A stretch of DNA of 62,014 bases, filler included, from Globobulimina sp. (taxonomy: Eukaryota), in assembly GCA_003354225.1 (NCBI GenBank). It is 26 parts of 26 records of this genome, joined end to end, with 100 filler letters (N's around TTAATTAATTAA, not from the genome) between each part and the next. Parts side by side here need not be neighbours in the genome. Positions count along the whole stretch, not along the records: positions 16,731 to 19,020 come from PIVH01007623.1; 25 more parts are not named here. One strand, written 5' to 3'. Shown piece after piece: positions 6,979 to 54,323 of this stretch; the stretch's first letter is position 1, and each line of letters opens with the position of its first letter. A program made the position numbers and the translations under genes. The notes below the pieces were generated by a model that ran no database searches, was not told where the DNA came from, and saw nothing but the letters and a program-made list of their open reading frames with translations.

Positions 6979-7171
6979 TATAATTTATATCAGAGTGTTT
7001 TATTCATGATTAAATGACGGTAATTTATTATCACTTACCGCCACTTCTATAAAATTGTGGTCAGCCTTACNNNNNNNNNNNNNNNNNNNNNNNNNNNNNN
7101 NNNNNNNNNNNNNNTTAATTAATTAANNNNNNNNNNNNNNNNNNNNNNNNNNNNNNNNNNNNNNNNNNNNA

Positions 7172-9085
7172 TCAAAATGGAATAAAACAGAATGCCCACA
7201 GTGTCTGAAACCATTTACAATCTCAAAACCTTGGACAAAAAAGATAAATTCAAATAATGACAACGAAGGTTCTGGTTATGACGTTGAGGAAGATGATGAA
7301 GATTATGTTCGTAAAAAAACATTTTCTAAAAATATGGACCATTGTAACTGTTGCGGTGAAAAGGTAGAAAATAAGGAAACTGAGGATATGAAATATGAAT
7401 TTTGTGAGAATAAGCAAGAAATGGCGATAACAGCGTATGGTGGATTTAATAATTGCGGTGTTTGTAATTATTATTATTGTGATAAATGTCGAAGAAATTG
7501 TTTTTACGAAATTGAACAAAGATACACGATGAGGCCACCGTCGCCTGTTCAAGATGCCATGATGGAATTCTATGCCTTATATCCTGCGAATAATAGTGAA
7601 TCGATTGAACCGTTTGAATGTTGCGAAATATGTTGGTATCGCTATTACTGTCGGAACTGTCCGCATTGTGGTTATACATTTTGCGCACATTGCAATTCAG
7701 AGTGGATTGGGTGGACTAGAAATTGGAGTGACAAATTACGTATTAATATTAATATGGAGGATGAGCACAAATTGAATGATGATTTGGTGGATGAAAAGCA
7801 TGGAAAACATGACGATAAATATGCAAAACATTCCTGTTTGAAGGCAAAAGCTAAAATGGCAGATATTGAGAGAAAAAAGAAAGAAAAACGAGAGAAAAAT
7901 AAAAATGAACTGATTCAAAGATTAGCAAAAGAAAAACAAGAGGCAGAATATGATAAAAAACATCAACAATATTTATTCGAGAGCCAACGAAAAGAATTGG
8001 AAGAAATGACAAAACAAAATGCTATGTGGAAAGCAAAAGCATTGGAGTCTGAAAATAAAATATTAGCCAAAGAAAAGAATGCCTCGCAACTGAGTTTAAA
8101 ACGTACACAAATCGAAAAAGATCGCTTTCGCGCCAAAGCAGAGGAGGAAGAAAAGAAAGCTATTCAGGTCGAAAAGGAAAATAATAAATTACGCAAAAAA
8201 ATTGGTTTTTTAACCGTATGGCAATGGCATGATAATGGCGCAAATTGGAAATCATATGATTATGATACAAATAAAGCGATTGAAAAGTTAAACATTAATG
8301 AAGTTTATAGCTATTTATGTCGCGCAAATAATCAAAATTATAAAATTACAAAAACTGCAAAAGATAATGGCACACAAATTAATACAAAAACAAATGTTGA
8401 AAGAAATATAAAAAGAAACAAAATTGAGCGAAGTTTGAATGTTGTAAAATATCCGCAATGGTGGAATATGAATGCTTTGCAGTTGGAATCTGAGCCAGGT
8501 TCGTCATTAATAAATGCGATGTATGCAACACCGAAATTAATTAGAATGAATTTAAACGAGTTGCCAGCCAATGATGTGGTGAATAAATTTTATTTGACTG
8601 TGAAAGGATATACAATCATTAAAATTGAATGTATACAAAATCAAATGTTATATGATGCGTATGACGGAGCTCGGAGTAAATTGTTAAAATTAATTGGAAA
8701 TAAGCAATTGAATGAAAAGAAATTGTTTCATGGAACGAGAAGTGAAAATGTTATGAAATTGATTGAAAATGAAGGATTTAGAAAAGAGTTTAATAAAACT
8801 GCTATGCATGGAAAGGGTACATATTTTGCACGCGATGCGAGTTATTCTGTTGGTTATTCGTCGTCGGATAATGGCATTTACAAAATGTTTGAATGCAATG
8901 TGCTTTGTGGCCAGAGTCATTTAGGAAATGCTTCATTTGAATTGAATAAATGGCCAAAAAAATCAAATGGATCGGGTTTGATATATGATTCATTGGTGGA
9001 TAATACAACAAATCCATCGATATTTGTCATTCATGATGATCTAAGAGCATACCCTATGTTTTCTATACATTTTAAAAAAAATTAA
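7172..9085 (+). CDS. Cys-rich (RING/IBR-like) + coiled coil + WWE + PARP catalytic domain protein, predicted mono-ART; frame open from contig start
   Basis: CPQC and several CxxC pairs including CPHCGYTFCAHC; WWE (VWQWHDNGANWKSYD); PARP LFHGT, HGKGTYFARDASYS, YDSLVDN, IFVI, AYP. Confidence 0.9.
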   Translation, partial: SKWNKTECPQCLKPFTISKPWTKKINSNNDNEGSGYDVEEDDEDYVRKKTFSKNMDHCNCCGEKVENKETEDMKYEFCENKQEMAITAYGGFNNCGVCNYYYCDKCRRNCFYEIEQRYTMRPPSPVQDAMMEFYALYPANNSESIEPFECCEICWYRYYCRNCPHCGYTFCAHCNSEWIGWTRNWSDKLRININMEDEHKLNDDLVDEKHGKHDDKYAKHSCLKAKAKMADIERKKKEKREKNKNELIQRLAKEKQEAEYDKKHQQYLFESQRKELEEMTKQNAMWKAKALESENKILAKEKNASQLSLKRTQIEKDRFRAKAEEEEKKAIQVEKENNKLRKKIGFLTVWQWHDNGANWKSYDYDTNKAIEKLNINEVYSYLCRANNQNYKITKTAKDNGTQINTKTNVERNIKRNKIERSLNVVKYPQWWNMNALQLESEPGSSLINAMYATPKLIRMNLNELPANDVVNKFYLTVKGYTIIKIECIQNQMLYDAYDGARSKLLKLIGNKQLNEKKLFHGTRSENVMKLIENEGFRKEFNKTAMHGKGTYFARDASYSVGYSSSDNGIYKMFECNVLCGQSHLGNASFELNKWPKKSNGSGLIYDSLVDNTTNPSIFVIHDDLRAYPMFSIHFKKN

Positions 9086-16730: not shown

Positions 16731-17667
16731 ATTTATGTAAAATGTATTACTTTTTGAAGCAAAAAGACACAGCGAAAAATATACGTTTTAAATCGTCGGA
16801 TATTGAAAATTTAGCTATACGAATTGCTTCAAACCATGATCCGGTACATAGTAATAAGTTAACCTCCGAGTTTGCTGACGAGATTCGACAAATTTGGAAC
16901 ACGGATACTATGCAAAACGTGTATGAAATCCGTAAGAAATCGCATATTATGGATAATACGCCTTACTTTTTGGACAAAGTGCAAGATTTTGCCAACCCAA
17001 ATTATATTGTCACCTTTGACGATTTTGTCCGGATTCGCGACCAAACCACAGGTAATTTTATCAAATCACTACTGTTTCTACAAAAAATATGTACGCAATA
17101 TCGCATTGAATTGAATTAGGTATAGTTCAGACGGAATTGACAGTGGACCGAGGACCAAAAGAGTGGTTCTTTCGGATCACAGATGTCGGCGGACAGAGAG
17201 CTGAAAGAAGGAAATGGCTGCATGTGTTTGCTGGCATCGATGTGGTGCTCTATGTGATGAGTCTGAGTGCCTACGATCAGGTATTATACGAAGATCATAA
17301 TACGCGATGTTGGGATGAAACGTTCAATTTATTTGAGAATACTGCCAAGAATAAAATTTTTAACCGGACGGATTTTATTATTTTTTTAAATAAAAATGAT
17401 ATATTTCAAGAAAAAATAAAAACAGTTCCTTTTACTGTATATTGTAAAGAATTTAATGTGGAGGCTGCCAATGATGCGGCTGAAGTCACTAAATGGTGCA
17501 CAAAACAATTTGAACAGAGGTTTAATAATAATAATAATAAAGGGGTGAAGCGAGGAATGCATTTCCATGTAACCTGTGCCACTGATACTGCTCAAATAGA
17601 AACTGTTGTTCGCTACGTCCAAATTGAATTGATAAGGAAATTAATGTCCAGAGCAGCTTTGCTCTGA
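16731..17667 (+). CDS. Heterotrimeric G-protein alpha subunit, 5'-truncated; intron 17052-17119
   Basis: Spliced RIRDQTTG|IVQTE (switch I), DVGGQRAERRKW, FLNKND (G4), TCATDT (G5), C-terminal AALL. Confidence 0.97.
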
Positions 17668-17829
17668 ATTTTGTATACTGTTTTATTGCAATTAAAAGTA
17701 GTACAAAAACTGAATCGAGCTGGTGACTTTTTTTGTTTGTTTTGTGTTTGTATCGCGAGCGCCTTTCATTTTTTCCATGCTAACTTTAAATTATTAAGAG
17801 GAGGAAAATCAACTTGAGTTAGTTGAAAA

Positions 17830-18861
17830 ATGGGAGCATGTCTTAATAATCGTTTCGAATATACCGCACCAACTGATCCATTTGAGTCCAAGTATAAAAA
17901 TGTAATCGATACATTAGTAAATTGGTGGAATGATAATCTAGAAGTATTGTCAGATGATAAGTACTTGGAATGCGCGTTAACATTTTATAACAATCTGTTC
18001 ATCAAAATGCAATCAGTCAGAGACAAAATGCAATCACGCGACGTTGACCTGAATATGCAGGCATTAAAAATGTTAGGCATGTTCAGATGGATCGTGTTAA
18101 CATTGACGGAATCATCTTTATCCAATGGTATGATAAGCGCATTACAGCAATTAGGAGCATTGCACGATTATCTCGGCATTGTATTGGATGATTATTTAGC
18201 GGCCGGCGACATTTTCCATGAGACAATGAGCCATGCTTTTGCAGCTACATATAATGTGAGAGTCAAATGGTGCTTTAATGTGTTATATGAGATTATGGTC
18301 GGTGTTATGATGGGGAATGATTTCACAAAATTGTGTGAAACACAGACAGATAAATTAATGTTGCTATGGGGCCACGTCAATGATGCTGAAAATTCAATTT
18401 CCGATTGTTTGGATAATCAATACGTTATGACATATTTACCATTATTTATGAAAGAACAATTTTGTATCGAATTATTTTTATTTATTACTGATTACAAGAA
18501 ATACAAATTAATGACAAATAAAGATGATATTATCAGATTTGGTGAACATATGAAGGAAATGTATATTGATTCCAATTCGGCACAACAAATAAATATAAGT
18601 GGAGTTTGTAGAAACGCATTTTATCACAACTTAGAAAGTGCCGATAATGTACATACGTCTACGTTTACAAATATTTCGTATGATGATTGCTATGAGGAAG
18701 TAATTCAATTAATTGAAATGTCGGTTTTTCCATATTTTAAACTAGCTATTAAGGAATGTGTAGATTCAATAAATGTGAAAGCTGCTCCGGCAAAATTAGT
18801 AAAACCGCCAGAAATTGATTTCGTGAAACTATCAAAACGAACCAATTCATTGTTTATTTGA
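17830..18861 (+). CDS. Globin-RGS fusion protein with N-terminal MGxC acylation motif
   Basis: aa ~25-162 globin: TFYNNLF, LNMQALKMLGMF, LQQLGALHDYLGI, DYLAAGDIF, WCFNVLY. aa ~189-305 RGS: SISDCLDN, FMKEQFCIELFLFITDYKKY, MYIDSNSAQQINIS, YDDCYEEVIQLIEMSVFPYF. Confidence 0.85.
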   Translation: MGACLNNRFEYTAPTDPFESKYKNVIDTLVNWWNDNLEVLSDDKYLECALTFYNNLFIKMQSVRDKMQSRDVDLNMQALKMLGMFRWIVLTLTESSLSNGMISALQQLGALHDYLGIVLDDYLAAGDIFHETMSHAFAATYNVRVKWCFNVLYEIMVGVMMGNDFTKLCETQTDKLMLLWGHVNDAENSISDCLDNQYVMTYLPLFMKEQFCIELFLFITDYKKYKLMTNKDDIIRFGEHMKEMYIDSNSAQQINISGVCRNAFYHNLESADNVHTSTFTNISYDDCYEEVIQLIEMSVFPYFKLAIKECVDSINVKAAPAKLVKPPEIDFVKLSKRTNSLFI

Positions 18862-19120
18862 TATACAGTGTATATTATCGATCGAATGTTCTATTTAATT
18901 AATACAAAAATGCATGTTTTGTTTGTCTTTTTTATATATTTTTCTGTATCGCGACCCGTCACTCGTTTTATTAAAATATTTATTGCATGGCATTATTTAT
19001 CGTTAATTAAATTGAAATCTNNNNNNNNNNNNNNNNNNNNNNNNNNNNNNNNNNNNNNNNNNNNTTAATTAATTAANNNNNNNNNNNNNNNNNNNNNNNN
19101 NNNNNNNNNNNNNNNNNNNN

Positions 19121-23467: not shown

Positions 23468-23901
23468 CATATTGTATTTTAATAAATTACGATGCCACGA
23501 GAAGAGCCACTCTCACTCTGTTTGAAAACGTTATTTCTTGCTGATCCGTTGAAATCCATATTTATTTGTATCATGTAAACAGACCGAAAAATTTCATCAT
23601 AATAAAAAAGAAATTAGTTTATGGTCATTATGTTTTGAAGAATATAAAATATTGCTATACATAAACTATCACAAACCATCGATCTGTATTATTGCATATA
23701 ATATAGATTGCTGATGGTTTGTTTATAGGTTTCTATTGGGTTTGCAATCTGTTGCATGATATCACCTTCATGCTATTTTTTAGCCATTCTAAGTACAATT
23801 NNNNNNNNNNNNNNNNNNNNNNNNNNNNNNNNNNNNNNNNNNNNTTAATTAATTAANNNNNNNNNNNNNNNNNNNNNNNNNNNNNNNNNNNNNNNNNNNN
23901 A

Positions 23902-25119
23902 ATTCAGACATCTTTATCATGCCACAAACCAGAACCAAACGCACTACAAACACAAGAAACTAAAGACACAGACAAAGAATTACCAGTTGTGATTGCGATG
24001 GAAAATGATAGCAAAAATATTTGCGAGCCAGCTCAGTTTAATGATATCGAAGAAGAAGAGAAAGTGCATGAGAAAGTAGCTGAGATTAAGTATTCCATAT
24101 CGGATTTACTGGAAATGCAACCAAAATATAGGGATATTAACTGGATTATTAATAACAACCAATGTATACCAAGAGATATACGTATTATTTATCAAGATAT
24201 TGATCATAAAGAATTTATGACAGATATTGTTGCATCAATCTCTCGTAAGTGTGATATTCGATTTTCTGATCGCAAAATGTCATCAGATAAGAAAGAAATG
24301 AATATGAAGAAACTGCAGGGCATATTGAACAAAATGACGCCAACAAAATTCGATAAAATAGCATCAGAGACAATGAGCATAATTTCAGATTATGTATCCT
24401 CGAAATCTGAAATGGAACACGTATTACATTTAATATTACAGTTTGGAACAAAGCAATCGATTTTTAGTGGTCAATATGCAAAATTAATTGAATATTTATT
24501 CGATTATTTACCACAAATAAATGAAAATATATCAGCTACATTTCGGAATATGGTTATTATTGAAACTGACAAATTATTTCACAAATACAATGCAGACAAG
24601 TTTAGCGATAAGAAATCATTTATTGCGTTTTTAAAACTGTGCGGTGATTTATATAATGTCAACATGATGCATTCCGGGGTTATATACAAAGGAATAATCA
24701 ACGAATTAAATAATAAAATATCACAAGTTGATATTGAAGCAATGTGCCAATTATTTAAGGAATGTGGTCAGAAATTAGATAATGAAAACACAAATGTTGT
24801 TGATAAATATTTGAGGAAAATCAAAAAACAAGCAAAGAGATTTGATTTTCGAACAAAATGTTTAGTTGATGGTATCTTCGAAATGAGGAATAAAAATTGG
24901 ACGGATCGAATAAAAAAAGAGACACCGAAACAATTAGATGAAATAAAGCAGGAATTTGAGAACGAACAAATTATTAAAGATAAAAAAATACGAAAATATG
25001 ATTATAATAATTATAAAAATAATAGTTATGAAGAAACAACAGGTACAACAAGTGTTAGATATAATCGTTACAGGAATGATGGCAATAATTTGCATTCTCG
25101 TCGTCGTAGATATCGGTAA
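23902..25119 (+). CDS. eIF4G-like protein (eIF4E-binding motif + MIF4G), start uncertain
   Basis: YSISDLL fits YxxxxLphi. LQGILNKMTPTKFDKI, FSGQYAKL, IEAMCQLFKECGQKLD, FRTKCLV...MRNKNW. Confidence 0.88.
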   Translation: MQTSLSCHKPEPNALQTQETKDTDKELPVVIAMENDSKNICEPAQFNDIEEEEKVHEKVAEIKYSISDLLEMQPKYRDINWIINNNQCIPRDIRIIYQDIDHKEFMTDIVASISRKCDIRFSDRKMSSDKKEMNMKKLQGILNKMTPTKFDKIASETMSIISDYVSSKSEMEHVLHLILQFGTKQSIFSGQYAKLIEYLFDYLPQINENISATFRNMVIIETDKLFHKYNADKFSDKKSFIAFLKLCGDLYNVNMMHSGVIYKGIINELNNKISQVDIEAMCQLFKECGQKLDNENTNVVDKYLRKIKKQAKRFDFRTKCLVDGIFEMRNKNWTDRIKKETPKQLDEIKQEFENEQIIKDKKIRKYDYNNYKNNSYEETTGTTSVRYNRYRNDGNNLHSRRRRYR

Positions 25120-43878: not shown

Positions 43879-45299
43879 TTAGTCAACTTCTTCCATACAC
43901 AACGTTTGTAGTGGCGTACAATATGTTGCTTGTGACGCCCACACATGACTTGAACAGGATCTTTGTTGTCCATGTGAGGCAGCGTTCATTTTTAACATTT
44001 TACCACCGCCACGTTCATACACTTGAGCATTTCGCATATTCTCCAAACACCGATCAAGATCCTTGACTAAATTTTGACAAAAACGATTCTTTGACGAAAC
44101 AGAATTTAGTATTAATATTTGCGCATTCTTTAATATTTTATTGGCTTGATCCAAATCCCCAGCACCCGCTGCTTTATCCGCTTCAATCATACTATTTGCT
44201 GCTAACAACCGATTACATTGTACATCAACATCAATATTACTCTCTTTCTCCTCATCTTCTTTACCTTCATCCATATCCATATCGCGTGCAATTGAACATA
44301 TTTCCGTGACCTTCTCCTTTCTGTCTCGAATAACATTAATATACTCGACACAGAGCCGAACCACATCATATTCTTTCTTTCTGTCATTAATTTTCGGTAT
44401 TTTTAACTCAAATAATAAATCGCGATTTTCTTCACTTTGTATATCATTAATTGTAACAGAAACGCTTCTTTTTCCAGAATTAATATTCGCATTTCCTTCA
44501 TCTGTACCAATGACACTGTCATATTTATATTTATATCCTTTTGATAGAATATTTTCAATTCGCACGCCACTGCTTAGACACTCAATATTTACCTTTATAT
44601 TCTGCGCGATTATGCCCATTAAACCGCCAATACATTCCGCTAATGTTTTTGCGATGATTTTCTCGCTGTCGATATATGCATACATTCCATTATTGCCCTG
44701 TTCTGCCACTGACTGCAACAAAGAGGCATTGTGCTGGCCGCCACAGCCAAATGTATTTATGCTGCAATTCATCCCTTGTTTCTTCTTAATGAGTTCATGA
44801 ATAATCTCTTCCGTTGACGTTTTACCCACATTTGCTTCGCCATCGGTAAAGAGAAAAATGGAGCGCACTAAATTTGAAGAAGAGTTGTTTGTTTTCATCA
44901 CATTTATACCTTCCACCAAACCATCACATAACGCAGTCGAACCACCGCAAAATAGGGAGTTTACTGCCTTTAATGCTTTTTGTTTGCAGTGCTTGGAACT
45001 GTTTAATGTCAGTAATGGCAATAATGTTTGCGATGAATTGGAGAATGTGATAATTCCAATTCGATCATTTTTATGTTTTAAAAATTTATTAATTATCACA
45101 TTCACTGTGTATTTGACTAAATCCATACGATTTGAGCACTGCATTGAACCGGATTTGTCAATAATACATAATAAATCTATCCCACTTCGATTGCTGCTGT
45201 TAATGCGATATGGCGGCGCATGGATTGATGCCATAAATTTGAAATCTTCTTTGTTTGCTGAGTATGGCAAATTGTCATTTTCAAATGTCCCAAATAGTG
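43879..45299 (-). CDS. von Willebrand factor A domain protein with Vwaint-like C-terminus, 5'-truncated
   Basis: MIDAS DKSGSM, GGSTAL, LFTDGEANVG, TFGCG..HN..LL, C-terminal SHGQQRS. Confidence 0.9.
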
Positions 45300-45431
45300 N
45301 NNNNNNNNNNNNNNNNNNNNNNNNNNNNNNNNNNNNNNNNNNNTTAATTAATTAANNNNNNNNNNNNNNNNNNNNNNNNNNNNNNNNNNNNNNNNNNNNA
45401 AAGAAAGAAAGAAAGAGTAATAAGATCGACG

Positions 45432-47687: not shown

Positions 47688-47787
47688 NNNNNNNNNNNNN
47701 NNNNNNNNNNNNNNNNNNNNNNNNNNNNNNNTTAATTAATTAANNNNNNNNNNNNNNNNNNNNNNNNNNNNNNNNNNNNNNNNNNNN

Positions 47788-49913
47788 AAAAAGCAGCGAG
47801 TCGATCCTCCAAAACAAGAGCCGCCAAATCTGAGCAAAAAGAATATTGTCATAGTGGAGGAAAGATAACATATAATTTTGGCAGCAGAAAATTGCATATT
47901 TGGAAACCAAGCAAAGGATATCCGGACAAAAAAACAGCGCAAAGACCGGTCGAAGGCAAATTGAAATTATTTTATGCTCACGGCTATAGCGGCAATTTTG
48001 AAGACTCGCGACAAAATATGTACTTGTCTCGCGATGGTAAAATGTTGATTTATTATATTGCCGCAGTGGTCATTGTGTTTGATTATAAAGCGAGAAAACA
48101 GCGTTTTTTTACCAAGCATAACGACGACGTAACAACGATATGTTTATCACCAAACAAACCATACTGTGCCTCGGGACAGAAAGACCCCAAAGACGAGCCT
48201 GGAAAAGGCAAGGATTTGCCAAAAATATATGTCTGGAATTACAAAACTATGAAATCAATGCAATTGATTGATGATGTTTGTTGGGGCAAAATATCTCGGT
48301 TACAGTGGTCGCCACACTCAAATTATTTATATTGTATTTGCGGCGATGATGGGCAAACATTAAAAGCGTATGACCCAAAGCAATTTGGTACTAAACATGG
48401 CTCGGAAACGTTAATTGATTGCAGTACAATGCGAGAGTTAATATTGGGATTTGAAATAAACCCGGCACCGTCAAGCGGGAACGTTGATGAATTCTTATTG
48501 TTTGGTAAAAGAAAGTTTGGTTATTGCTACATTACGAAAGGTAGCAAAGGCTTACAAGCAAAGCTTAAGAATGTTTCTATCGTTGCGCTTAGAAGAGATG
48601 GCGAGAAATCATTTGCGTGCGGCCAGTTTCTAAAGAATGGGCAGTATTTAGTTGGGTCAGCGTCTGGAGCAATATATGTCGGTAAAGAGAATACTGCATT
48701 GGCAATAATTGGAGGCCATGATAAAGCCATTGGTGCAATGTGCATAAATAAAGCGAATGTGTTAACAGCTGGAAGTGACAGAAAATTCAAGATATGGAAG
48801 GTTGGAGAAGCAAAGCAAGCAAAGGGTAACAAAAAAGCAGTACCAGTTAGTTTGAAGAATACGTGGGAAGCTACAGTGGAGGTAAAAGAGAGTGACATGG
48901 TGTTAAAGCCGCGAGCCATTGCTTATAATGCAGAGAGTGGCACTGTTTTTTGTGGAACAAAAACAAATCAAATCGTGCAGTTTGAAATGAAAACACAAAC
49001 AGCATCGGTCATAGTGGATGGCCATGACGGTCAGGTCTGGGGTTTGTGTACATCACCGACACAAAAGTTATTTGCAACTGGCGGCTATGATAATGCTGTG
49101 AAGGTATGGAATGCGAGCAGTATGCAATGTGTTTCTACGTACGAGTTTGAAACAGGTCGTTATGAATTTTGTTGTGGACACTGGTCAAACAAAGGGGATA
49201 TATTAGTATTTGGCACTGAGGATTCAAACCTTGCAGTATTTGTATGGCGACAAAAGAGACTTAAATTGGTGAAAACGATTAATATTCCACCAAAGAATGC
49301 AAATGCAGAGATTGAGGGTGTGGCATATTTACGATTTAGTAATGATTCAAGTTTATTAGCGGCAGCTCATATGGATGCCAATTTGTATATATTTTCTGTG
49401 ACCGGAATTGATTCAAATTCGCCAGATTTAAAGAAATGGCCATTAGGAATGAACCATTCTGCGGCTCCAACCAATGTTCAGTTCACTCGAAATGGAAAAA
49501 TTGTAAAGACATTGACAAGGGACTATGAGATTGCTCATTGGACATTGGATAAGAAAGCAAAGAAAGGCAAATTTTTAGCAATTCAGCCTGATCCTGACAA
49601 TACGAAATGGGCAGACGATCCGTTGATTGCTGGGTGGAATACACAAGGTTTATATCAGCGGGGATGGGATGGAACGGATTTAAACGATGCAACAATTACT
49701 TCGGATAACAAACTAATTGCGTCTGGTGATGATTATGGTTGTGTGCGATTGCATAATTTCCCAGCGGTTGATCCATCCGCATGCTTAGAGTATGGAGGTC
49801 ATGCTGAGTTTGTTGTAGGTGTTGAGTTTTTAAGAGATGATTCTCAATTAATTACATGTGGTGGTGCTGATATGGCTATATTTCAGTGGAAATTAATCAA
49901 AGGTGGCAAATAA
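47788..49913 (+). CDS. EML: Echinoderm microtubule-associated protein-like (HELP + WD40), 5'-truncated
   Basis: KLKLFYAHGYSG..RQN, YYIAAVVIVFD, QRFFTKHNDDV, GHDGQVWGL, ASGDDYGCVRL.NFP, GGADMAIFQW. Confidence 0.93.
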
Positions 49914-52563: not shown

Positions 52564-54323
52564 CCCCAAACTATGTTCGTTTGGTTGTCGGAGGGATTAT
52601 CTTTTGCACAATTGTTTATCCCTCACTTTTTTAGGGGTAACTTTCTTAGGGGCTGCTTCTTTAGGGGTTCCCGCATCTCTGTCCGCTTCATTTTTCGATC
52701 CTGACAACAAACAAGGAGCTAAAATACGGCAACAGTGTTGTATCGATGCGTTACATGATATGATATCATGGTATAACACAGGCGGCCAAATAGGTATTTT
52801 AGATGCCACAAATACGAGCTTAAAACGAAGGCAATTCATTCGAGATTTCCTTGCTAATAAAAAATCTGAATTAGAATATAATGTCTCCATTTTACACATT
52901 GAATCCATCTGCAATGATGAGTCAATAATACATAATAATATCATCACTGTGAAATTGAAAAATCCCGATTATTGTACTGTTGATGCACAGAAAGGTGTAC
53001 ACCTCTCCTCTCTACAAATAATATTCATATGCAAACGATAAAATATATACTGCAGCAATTCAAGATTTCAAAGAAAGAATCAAAATGTACAAGAAAGTAT
53101 ATGTCCAAGTATCCAAAGCTGAGGGATCGTACATAAAAGTAATTGACGTAGGCGCAGAAGTAATGGGCCATGGCATCAATGACTATATATCTTGCCGGAT
53201 ATTCTATTTCTTGATGCATTTGCATTTACATCGCTTGACAAAGATCCCCAAGAAACCATTGTTAATGCAATTGCAAAACCGGAATGACACAAAGAAGGAC
53301 AATGAAATGGTGGACCGATTGAAGAAAATATCGGCCAGCATCGGTGCCAAATTCACTCGACCCGCATATGACAGACCTATGCATGCATTGGCACCATATA
53401 TGAGGAGACCTTCCTATTTAATGTGGACCGAATCTGAAGATACCTATAAATCTCCCAAAGTTGAAGTGAATACTAAGCCTAATTTTCCATTTCCAGTGCA
53501 AACCATGCATTCTTCAACAAAGCAGTCGCACTCTCAAAGTCAAACTGATGCTTATAATGCTTCCAATGTCGTAAATAAGAGTTTCGGTCCAATCGCAAAG
53601 GTCAAACTGGATGCAAATGCAATGCCTCCTACGAGCACAAACTACAATGTCTCATTTGAGTCCGCAACCTCGCCGATCCACAGTGGAGCCGCTGTGGCTT
53701 CGCCCATGCCGTCCCCCATGGCATCATTCAGGAATAGACCGAGAGTAAGGAAGTCCACACTGATTATGGAGATGGTGAATAAACGAAGTTCATTTATAGC
53801 GACTCCTAAGGCTATAAGCAGCATACTGGAACATATTGAATTGGACGAAAAGTTTGAGTACAATGGTGATGAGATGAAAGTTGATAAAAATAAGATTGTA
53901 GAAGACTTTCATTGCGAATTATGTGGTCGGACGGTAGGTAAAAATGAAACTACTTTAGTGGATTCGAGGTCTGCTGATCAGGATAAAGTAAGAATATGTG
54001 AAGTTTGTTTATATGAATCTGACACAGATTCGGAGGATGATACGACTGGAGATCATTGTGACGCACTTATTGATATTATGCATAGTGGGCCGGCCTCAAT
54101 TATGCCATCCATTATGCCGTCAGAAACTAAGCTGGTGCAATATCCTTCGAATTCAAATGAGAGTCAGTTAGGAAATATACAAAGGAAAATGCAAGAAATG
54201 GAGAATTCTGTTAATATGTTAGTCAAACAATTGAACGAAAATACGGATAATAAGCAGAAAGATAAACATTTTAAACAAGAATTGGTTAGATTACAACAGA
54301 AAATGCAGGAATTATTCCAATGA
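52564..54323 (+). CDS. 6-phosphofructo-2-kinase domain protein without the FBPase-2 domain; intron 52995-53055; 5'-truncated
   Basis: ASFFDPDN, GILDATN, IESICND, VKLKNPDY; spliced QK|AIQDFKERI.MY; SYIKVIDVG, FYFLMHLH. Confidence 0.88.

Follow-up and report, generated by a model that had tools for sequence, protein, structure and literature searches.

The DNA analysed here is a window of 62,014 bases from the genome assembly of the foraminifer Globobulimina sp. (GCA_003354225.1). It consists of about 26 contigs of about 2,290 bp, and N44-TTAATTAATTAA-N44 spacers recur at intervals of about 2,390 bases. One 2,290-bp contig (16731-19020), to which the finding is confined, carries on its plus strand the 3' part of a gene for a G-protein alpha subunit (G-alpha), followed by a complete gene whose product combines a globin with a regulator of G-protein signalling (RGS) domain. 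Since the window joins separate contigs, the true context of this globin-RGS gene amounts to 2.3 kb, in which it is accompanied by the G-alpha gene alone.

The globin-RGS gene (17830..18861, + strand) comprises 343 codons plus stop and is intronless, as judged from translation of the open reading frame (ORF), tblastn and homology to the protein P0001. A single high-scoring segment pair in tblastn spans aa 1-341 of this transcript-derived homologue. P0001 has a length of 348 aa and is 63-65% identical over aa 3-341 (E = 6e-132), which excludes a chance match. An in-frame TGA (17824-17826) directly precedes the ATG of the ORF, so that Met1-Gly2 is the sole possible start in this frame. The GC content of the window ranges from 27 to 39%, and the frame remains open over all 343 codons in DNA of 28-33% GC. 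A sequence-only reading of this DNA, which preceded the present analysis, had described an intronless ORF of 343 aa starting with MGACL on the same strand, 162 bp past the G-alpha stop; coordinates and tblastn agree with this description. From the N- to the C-terminus, the protein consists of the globin domain (aa 17-162), a helix (aa 165-184) and the RGS domain (aa 186-313), which is the order of an N-terminal globin, a linker and a signalling domain. These parts fill the 343 residues without any transmembrane segment, and there is no seven-transmembrane (7TM) domain N-terminal to the RGS domain.

Contigs from sequencing runs were compared with the window. Record 5 of run X1 covers 17434-18989 with 0 differences, while record 12 of run X4, which stems from a separate study, covers 17551-18842 with 2 differences. 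Both extend from the 3' end of the G-alpha gene across the spacer and through almost the entire globin-RGS ORF. Run X1 is possibly the source sample itself, whereas X4 is independent. Because contigs from two studies bridge both genes, the contig is not chimeric, and this possible refutation named by the earlier reading is thus removed. Its placement of both genes on one contig is correct for 16731-19020, with the restrictions that this contig is only 2,290 bp long and that the G-alpha gene is partial, its 5' end being cut.

Run X8 contributes four pieces that are about 90% identical to the window along the ORF (17839-17994, 18504-18696, 18582-18696 and 18667-18854), and its contig departs from the window sequence after 18854. 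None of the runs is recorded as RNA, and the RNA status of X6-X8 is a guess. Runs X6 and X8 probably hold RNA-derived sequence of a close relative, since both contain the spliced join of the G-alpha gene, at 90-95% identity to the window. The X8 pieces hint that the gene is transcribed in a near relative and do not prove this for the present allele.

A family of globin-RGS proteins

An exhaustive HMMER search of 1.84 billion representative sequences yielded 86 proteins with E ≤ 1e-3, 30 with E ≤ 1e-10 and 4 with E ≤ 1e-30. A word-index protein search found P0001 alone, and the family is visible through HMMER only. Among the 86 proteins, 35 were chosen by eye in which a single match reaches from aa ≤ 40 to aa ≥ 261 and thereby spans both domains; the remaining 51 are fragments, single-domain matches or other layouts. 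The 35 cluster representatives and the query form the 36-row alignment used below. The order from globin to RGS is fixed in all 35 representatives, and three residues (G109, H112 and E214, query numbering) are invariant in the alignment. Globin and RGS parts are equally conserved, with a mean pairwise identity of 0.30 each.

Species labels were present in 23 of the 30 clusters looked up and name Bolivina argentea, Nonionella stella, Ammonia sp. or Elphidium margaritaceum in every case; 7 clusters were unlabelled. All species-labelled relatives in these clusters are hence foraminifera, in line with the foraminiferal origin assumed before. Many homologues have names of the type 'Transcript_...' (MMETSP), indicating that they are expressed. 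The sequences are publicly available under automatic names such as 'hemoglobin-like flavoprotein' and 'Globin family profile domain-containing protein'. That gene and family are real, expressed fusions appears to be practically certain.

In a FastTree phylogeny, several old paralogue clades with mixed species were obtained. Based on these comparisons, the globin-RGS protein of the window is a divergent paralogue of a large family in rotaliid foraminifera and not a unique fusion. The 90%-identity clusters of P0002, P0019 and P0026 hold labels of both Nonionella stella and Bolivina argentea, which suggests either strong conservation or cross-contamination of two field-derived transcriptomes. Paralogue numbers per species therefore need to be treated with caution.

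The search for the same architecture, as proposed along with the initial reading, thus returned the 35 representatives and, in addition, a related protein of Plasmodiophora brassicae. This protein (P0073, 644 aa, NCBI name 'Globin family profile domain-containing protein') has the order RGS-globin-RGS-globin. In P0048 (908 aa), an RGS domain is followed by a globin-like part. Because P0073 and P0048 combine the domains in other orders, the pairing of RGS and globin seems either to have arisen more than once or to have been rearranged within Rhizaria. Another protein, P0054 (3,690 aa), matched in the globin part only; Pfam Globin is found in it at least 6 times, and its C-terminal region has two cytochrome b5 domains. 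A scan of metagenome contigs with a 6-row alignment led to 243 pattern matches, of which 0 were confirmed, and the ESM Atlas gave no usable match.

Globin and RGS domains of the fusion protein

The N-terminus of the protein reads MGACLNN (17830..17850, + strand). By comparison with the N-termini of the family, Gly2 and Cys4 form a candidate site for N-myristoylation and palmitoylation. An MG start is found in 25 of the 36 sequences, a PROSITE-type myristoylation pattern in 15, and this pattern together with a Cys at positions 3-6 in 7. The MGAC start fits this pattern, in support of the acylation-type N-terminus noted at the outset. Membrane anchoring of globin X depends on a myristate at Gly2 and a palmitate at Cys3 (PMC7475203). 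The Cys of the present protein is at position 4 instead of 3.

The AlphaFold2 (AF2) model of the protein reached a mean predicted local distance difference test score (pLDDT) of 85.1 and a predicted TM-score (pTM) of 0.74, with 221 residues at or above 90. The globin domain (17878..18315, + strand; helices A-C and E-H) was delimited with phmmer, the family profile, AF2 and Foldseek. Helices A, B, C, E, F, G and H were modelled at aa 23-160 with pLDDT values mostly above 90; a D helix is missing between helices C (61-67) and E (74-91). When compared to the PDB with phmmer, the query matched HGbRL (3wfw_A, E 1.8e-4) and HGbI (3s1i_A, E 5.5e-3) over aa 43-161. The family profile matched HGbI (3s1i_A) at 8.3e-18 and HGbRL at 1.1e-11, followed by plant non-symbiotic haemoglobins, a cyanobacterial nitric oxide synthase (NOS) globin and neuroglobins (about 1e-6). 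Foldseek matched globins with a probability of 1.00 and TMt values of 0.65-0.74, including plant Hb1 (3zhw_B, 0.66), neuroglobin (7ohd_B, 0.74) and Riftia haemoglobin (0.72).

In the HMMER alignments, the key residues of the globin are Y53 (B10), M67 (CD1), Q77 (E7), K80 (E10) and H112 (F8, codon 18163-18165, + strand). Y53 pairs with Tyr29 of HGbI, Q77 with Gln50, M67 with Phe43 (CD1) and H112 with the proximal His of both HGbI and HGbRL. This pairing confirms the residue assignments, and Y53 (in TFY), Q77, H112 (in LGALH) and Met67 all align to solved globins in the roles previously ascribed to them. In HGbI, O2 is bound by Tyr29(B10) and Gln50(E7), and HGbI and HGbRL belong to a D-helix-less bacterial group with conserved TyrB10/GlnE7, alongside HMP, FHP and Vitreoscilla haemoglobin (PMC4476040). 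A 'closed' Lys-His hexacoordinate form of HGbRL is made by Lys(E10) (PMC4476040). The E10 position is Lys80 in the query and Lys in 18 of the 36 family members. Both H112 (F8) and G109 were found in 36/36 sequences, as was the LGxxH motif, and each of the two repeats in the Plasmodiophora protein carries this motif with its His as well.

Among 15 members of the family that were scanned, 9 were at or above the Pfam Globin (PF00042) cut-off of 22 bits, with the nearest, P0001, at exactly 22.0 bits. Protoglobin (PF11563) was always under its cut-off and, in the homologues, below PF00042. According to the definitions of the M/F (flavohaemoglobin-like/single-domain) and S (sensor) lineages, classical globin-coupled sensors belong to the S lineage (PMC4648194). 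Judged by the Pfam ranking (Globin over Protoglobin) and the PDB ranking (HGbI as best match), the globin is a member of the M/F and not of the S lineage, and an assignment as classical S-lineage sensor globin was rejected. The TyrB10/GlnE7 pair had been attributed to flavohaemoglobin-type and sensor globins alike; for the present globin, both rankings support the former type and not the latter. The query probably binds haem, as suggested by these comparisons.

The linker helix (18322..18381, + strand), rigid in appearance, was predicted by AF2 with a block pLDDT of 90-93. It is the least conserved structured part of the family, with a mean pairwise identity of 0.21. The confidently modelled linker helix, the equal conservation of both domains and their fixed order in 35 representatives argue for the two domains forming one unit.

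The RGS domain (18385..18768, + strand) was recognised by Pfam RGS (PF00615), the family profile and Foldseek. The Pfam score of the query is 33.2 bits over aa 191-303, which is above the cut-off of 23.9, and all members scanned (15/15) exceeded the cut-off as well. With the family profile, the best matches were RGS2 (2.8e-16) and RGS1 (5.4e-16), followed by RGS18, RGS5, RGS8, RGS16 and RGS4 (1.4e-11), while axin was matched at 1e-7. All Foldseek matches with E ≤ 1e-3 (8/8) are RGS domains; those of the R4 subfamily have TMt values of 0.79-0.87, with 0.82-0.87 for RGS8, RGS1 and RGS4, and include chains crystallised with G-alpha. For 2ode_B (complex of RGS8 and G-alpha-i3), the TMt was 0.85 and the root mean square deviation 2.3 Å over 135 columns, in keeping with the nine-helix RGS fold. 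The assignment as RGS domain is thereby confirmed, with profile and Foldseek both pointing to the R4 type.

The key residues of the RGS domain are E214 (Glu87 in RGS4), L215 (Asn88), N255 (Asn128, codon 18592-18594) and S298-V-F-P-Y-F303 (DSYPRF). In the HMMER alignments, N255, within QINIS, takes the place of the Asn found in EINID (RGS2) and QINID (RGS1), and E214-L215 falls on the E-N of the 'EEN' motif. The residue deviations noted at first reading, EL for EN and SVFPYF for DSYPRF with retention of the INIS Asn, are all found in the alignment. The region of DSYPRF has NHWKKF as family consensus. In RGS4, the three critical contacts are Asn128-Gln204, Asn88-Thr182 (switch I) and Asp163-Thr182, and Asn128 orients the catalytic Gln204 of G-alpha (PMC8252600). 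The equivalent of Glu87 is invariant in the family (36/36), and that of Asn128 is retained in 33/36. Since the RGS fold and the catalytic Asn are retained, an RGS domain directed at G-alpha is argued for, with a switch I pocket that is built differently.

Binding was also addressed by complex prediction, made without alignments or controls, of RGS aa 183-318 with residues 100-495 of P0100, which led to a score of 0.01 and a mark of 0.34 and speaks neither for nor against binding. P0100 is the nearest full-length G-alpha and served as stand-in, as the G-alpha gene of the window is truncated and split by an intron. The chances that the RGS domain of the present paralogue binds G-alpha or acts on it as GTPase-activating protein (GAP) appear to be even.

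The neighbouring G-alpha gene and other contigs

The penultimate exon of the G-alpha gene (16731..17051, + strand) extends to the contig edge, is coding from 16733 and covers the part from the helical domain to switch I, ending with RIRDQTT+G (Pfam G-alpha E 5.7e-16, profile positions 79-173). It is followed by a 68-nt GT..AG intron (17052..17119, + strand), identified by sequence reading and contig joins. The last exon (17120..17667, + strand) encodes the Gly-Ile of switch I, switch II (DVGGQRAERRKW), NKxD, TCAT and the C-terminus ...KLMSRAALL, followed by the stop codon TGA at 17665-17667 (Pfam G-alpha E 1.2e-30, profile positions 214-330). In total, the partial gene reaches from profile position 79 to 333 of 333. 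When joined across the intron, the exons read RIRDQTTG and IVQTE ... DVGGQRAERRKW. Runs X6 and X8 each contain one contig with a splice join from 17049 to 17118 that skips 68 nt (GT..AG, cut +2). In run X4, positions 17039-17115 in the region of the intron are uncovered and no contig joins across them; nothing was drawn from this gap.

The first of the two exons is 81% identical to residues 156-261 of P0109. As this match begins at the first residue, the exon is coding as far as the contig edge. Compared to P0109, the gene lacks about 155 residues at the N-terminus, among them the P-loop, as the contig edge cuts it 5'. Its C-terminus, by contrast, is complete and the same as in the full-length P0100 and P0103. 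An alignment of 43 G-alpha sequences shows invariant or near-invariant columns for the switch I residues Arg, Thr and Gly, the switch II Gln and the NKxD and TCAT motifs. The catalytic Arg, the switch I TTG and the switch II Gln, to which the sequence-only reading had drawn attention, are thus present in the translation at highly conserved positions. An AAT-rich run (17516-17548) encodes NNNNN within the G-alpha; being repetitive, it was left out of the contig comparison, and contigs seem to break off at this point.

The nearest foraminiferal G-alphas (P0100-P0104, P0109, P0113 and P0134) are 429-501 aa in length and start with MSQPK... instead of MG. They also feature a Ser/Lys-rich N-terminal extension of about 100 residues and a P-loop with GAGGSGKS in place of GAGESGKS, and some of them have a long Asn/Gly-rich insert ahead of TCAT. 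Because of the start with MSQPK... rather than MG, these G-alphas may not be N-myristoylated, unlike the globin-RGS family.

The G-alpha and globin-RGS genes are separated by a spacer of 162 bp (17668..17829, + strand), which is bridged by the X1 and X4 contigs. A T-run at a loose end after 17695 in run X6 is not interpretable as poly(A) site. A single fused gene for G-alpha, globin and RGS was considered and rejected, as the C-terminus ...KLMSRAALL is the same as in full-length homologues and the ORF starts with MG right after an in-frame stop, like P0001. Downstream of the globin-RGS gene, the 3' flank (18862..19020, + strand, from sequence reading) leads up to the contig end.

The contigs of the window are apparently ordered by length, and features on separate contigs are no genomic neighbours. 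Long ORFs on the other contigs encode ordinary eukaryotic domains (PARP+WWE, EML propellers, VWA, MIF4G and 6PF2K). A frame of 652 aa at 7127-9082 (+) has WWE and PARP catalytic domains; EML-type double propellers are found at 47736-49910, VWA at 43882-45351 (minus strand), MIF4G at 23857-25116 and a 6PF2K fragment at 53022-54320.

Possible function and comparison with known systems

The domain composition suggests a 'receptor-GAP' controlled by gas or redox state, with an input as in globin-coupled sensors and an output as in 7TM-RGS proteins; for such a role we see slightly less than even odds. Acylation of Gly2 and Cys4 would anchor the protein to the membrane and thereby place it at the site of G-alpha subunits. 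The globin would bind haem b via His112, with Tyr53 (B10) and Gln77 (E7) on the distal side. Binding of O2 or nitric oxide (NO), or a change in redox state or coordination, possibly a Lys80 (E10)-His hexacoordination as in HGbRL, would move helices E to H. The linker helix would relay this movement to the RGS domain and alter its binding to, or GTPase acceleration of, activated G-alpha, with a changed lifetime of G-alpha-GTP as outcome. Control of RGS activity by the haem state is considered tentative and somewhat less probable than not, and it is doubtful that the neighbouring G-alpha is the specific target. The most far-reaching reading is that Rhizaria (foraminifera and plasmodiophorids) may possess a gas or redox pathway independent of G-protein-coupled receptors, in which a lipid-anchored haem-globin gates an RGS domain, the lifetime of G-alpha-GTP depends on O2, NO or redox state, the many paralogues with their different distal pockets (Tyr, Phe or Leu at B10; Gln, Leu or His at E7) are tuned to different ligands or thresholds, movement and metabolic switching of benthic foraminifera are steered, and one paralogue is genomically paired with its own G-alpha. 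To this reading as a whole we assign a probability of about 0.3.

Several observations weigh against the receptor-GAP reading. On the side of the globin, the query alone has no match to Pfam Globin at E ≤ 10, and its only Pfam match in this half is Protoglobin with 14.3 bits (cut-off 25). The globin fold, for which the sequence-only reading had proposed the Pfam family as check, is hence not seen by this profile and is indicated instead by phmmer against the PDB, the family profile and the AF2/Foldseek matches. Among the 15 members scanned, 6 are under the Pfam Globin cut-off, P0014 with a score below it and P0009, P0066, P0023, P0031 and P0034 without match at the thresholds used. The CD1 Phe is replaced by Met67 in the query and varies in the family (F14, M9, L9, V3 and G1 of 36). 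The distal residues vary as well (36 rows), with Y17/F13/L5/W1 at B10 and Q9/L7/H4/T4 and others at E7. As these residues are unconserved, the family cannot share one ligand chemistry; the variation fits ligand-tuned paralogues and equally well a family in which haem chemistry is not the point. Globins of the M/F type usually have enzymatic roles, such as NO dioxygenase, and not sensory ones.

On the side of the RGS domain, the equivalent of Asn88 is Leu in the query and Asn in only 2/36 sequences, with Leu, Ile or Met in 27/36. The equivalent of Asp163 is Ser in the query and Asn in 25/36, and that of Arg167 is Tyr in the query. Of the three contacts critical in RGS4, Asn128 alone is thus retained. 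In addition, the phylogeny groups query and P0001 with good support, and the branch leading to them is long (1.24). That a G-alpha gene lies next to the fusion gene was observed once, on 2.3 kb of a eukaryotic genome, and the relatives are transcripts.

These points also bear on other explanations. The protein might be a membrane-anchored working globin that serves in NO dioxygenation, nitrite reduction or the handling of reactive oxygen species (ROS) or O2, with the RGS domain docking it to G-alpha complexes, or with activated G-alpha switching the globin. In this explanation, the signal would pass from the G protein to the globin instead of the reverse. We regard this explanation as unlikely, although the nearest solved relatives are of the non-sensor TyrB10/GlnE7 flavohaemoglobin group (HGbI, HMP, FHP and VsHb), the acylation-type N-terminus parallels globin X, and an RGS domain with two of the three critical GAP contacts replaced might bind without catalysing. 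A reductase partner domain is missing, however, distal residues as variable as those of the family would not be expected under one conserved enzymatic chemistry, and the retention of the Asn128 (33/36) and Glu87 (36/36) equivalents is at odds with it.

Improbable, too, is that the domain has an RGS-homology fold inactive on G-alpha, as in axin, GRK, AKAP10 and sorting nexins, with a G-protein-independent role of the protein and a coincidental adjacency. The exchange of Asn88 for Leu, Ile or Met in most members and of Asp163 and Arg167 for Ser and Tyr in the query would be explained in this way, axin RGS domains are likewise matched by the family profile (1e-7), and neighbouring genes in eukaryotes are seldom linked in function. 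Nevertheless, catalytic R4 RGS domains are the best matches in profile and fold, 8-9 orders of magnitude over axin, the Asn128 and Glu87 equivalents are conserved, and the location beside a G-alpha gene whose product has its switch residues intact would at least fit an action on G-alpha.

There is also very little to be said for a globin fold without haem that binds a lipid or another small ligand, or that serves as structural or dimerisation module of the RsbR or photoglobin type. Non-haem globin families do exist (PMC8717448), and Met at CD1 of the query and the weak or absent Pfam Globin match in 6/15 members would be compatible with such a state. In contrast, HisF8 and the LGxxH motif are invariant (36/36) and occur in both Plasmodiophora repeats, and the relatives of HGbI type bind haem (PMC4476040). 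Finally, an artefact, be it a chimera, contamination or a dead gene, is hardly conceivable: despite the highly fragmented assembly (2.3-kb contigs) and the possible identity of X1, the run with the best DNA match, with the source sample, a second study provides a contig over 17551-18842 that shows 2 differences, the frame is open over 343 codons in DNA of low GC content, P0001 is collinear and 63-65% identical over aa 3-341, and the four foraminiferal transcriptomes that supplied relatives of one gene also supplied those of the other.

Few eukaryotes besides foraminifera flourish in sediments that are anoxic and rich in nitrate, and benthic species move and switch their metabolism along sediment gradients of oxygen and nitrate. 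Known outputs of haem-based gas sensors comprise chemotaxis, cyclase, phosphodiesterase and kinase functions, and RGS proteins with 7TM input are known as well. If the proposed receptor-GAP reading is true, it would be the first direct link from a gas-binding haem protein to the GTPase step of heterotrimeric G-protein signalling, and the protein would be a concrete candidate for sensing of oxygen or nitrogen oxides in foraminifera. Besides the size, conservation and expression of the family, the two domains themselves, being small and soluble, make it amenable to spectroscopy and GAP assays.

In the literature, judged by titles and the starts of abstracts and with subscription reviews of globins in microbial eukaryotes outside its scope, no description of a globin-RGS protein was found. 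The earlier remark that no characterised globin-RGS protein was known is borne out within these limits. RGS, G protein, Rhizaria and Reticulomyxa are not mentioned in a review of globin diversity (PMC7475203), and the main text of an article on Bolivina and Nonionella transcriptomes mentions no globin, G protein or RGS (PMC8153729). According to titles and abstracts, none of the articles found to mention both Plasmodiophora brassicae and globin concerns P0073. To this extent, the globin-RGS architecture is uncharacterised and the family undescribed.

Compared to known systems, the globin is closest to HGbI (PDB 3s1i/3ubc) and HGbRL (3wfw) of Methylacidiphilum infernorum, which are its best sequence matches and share the lack of a D helix, TyrB10/GlnE7 and the LGxxH motif. 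HGbRL, moreover, features Lys at E10 and a C-terminal domain of signalling type (Roadblock/LC7). Both differ from the query in that they are bacterial, have Roadblock/LC7 or no output domain instead of RGS and lack an acylation motif; their identity to the query is in the range of 20-30%, and CD1 is Phe in HGbI compared to Met in the query. Globin X is a precedent for acylation of a globin at Gly2 and Cys but has no signalling domain. The RGS part shares the fold and the Glu87 and Asn128 equivalents with R4 RGS proteins (RGS2, RGS1, RGS8, RGS16 and RGS4; 2af0, 2gtp, 2ode and 1agr). These are small stand-alone proteins with an amphipathic N-terminus, whereas the RGS domain of the query is fused to a globin and has EL and SVFPYF for EN and DSYPRF.

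In its layout of N-terminal globin, linker and C-terminal transmitter, the protein resembles globin-coupled sensors such as HemAT and EcDosC/AfGcHK, which relay changes in ligand or redox state via the linker to the transmitter domain (PMC8076648). Those sensors are prokaryotic, belong to the S lineage (PMC4648194) and have methyl-accepting chemotaxis protein (MCP), GGDEF, kinase or STAS outputs, not RGS. Proteins of the AtRGS1 type, in which RGS is fused to a 7TM module, control self-activating G-alpha at the GTPase step (PMC3386157). As in AtRGS1, a sensor module is fused to RGS and the signal would act at the GTPase step and not at nucleotide exchange, but the input of AtRGS1 is a transmembrane receptor, compared to a soluble haem domain with putative lipid anchor in the query. 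Ferric neuroglobin binds G-alpha-i as guanine nucleotide dissociation inhibitor (GDI) (PMC4842972) and is a precedent for a redox-dependent contact between globin and G-alpha; it lacks RGS and inhibits GDP release without accelerating GTP hydrolysis. A further parallel in domain content is the rhizarian P0073, which has homologous RGS and globin domains with INISG and LGxxHxYL motifs and is distinguished from the query by a duplicated RGS-globin unit, the absence of an MG start and an automatic annotation only.

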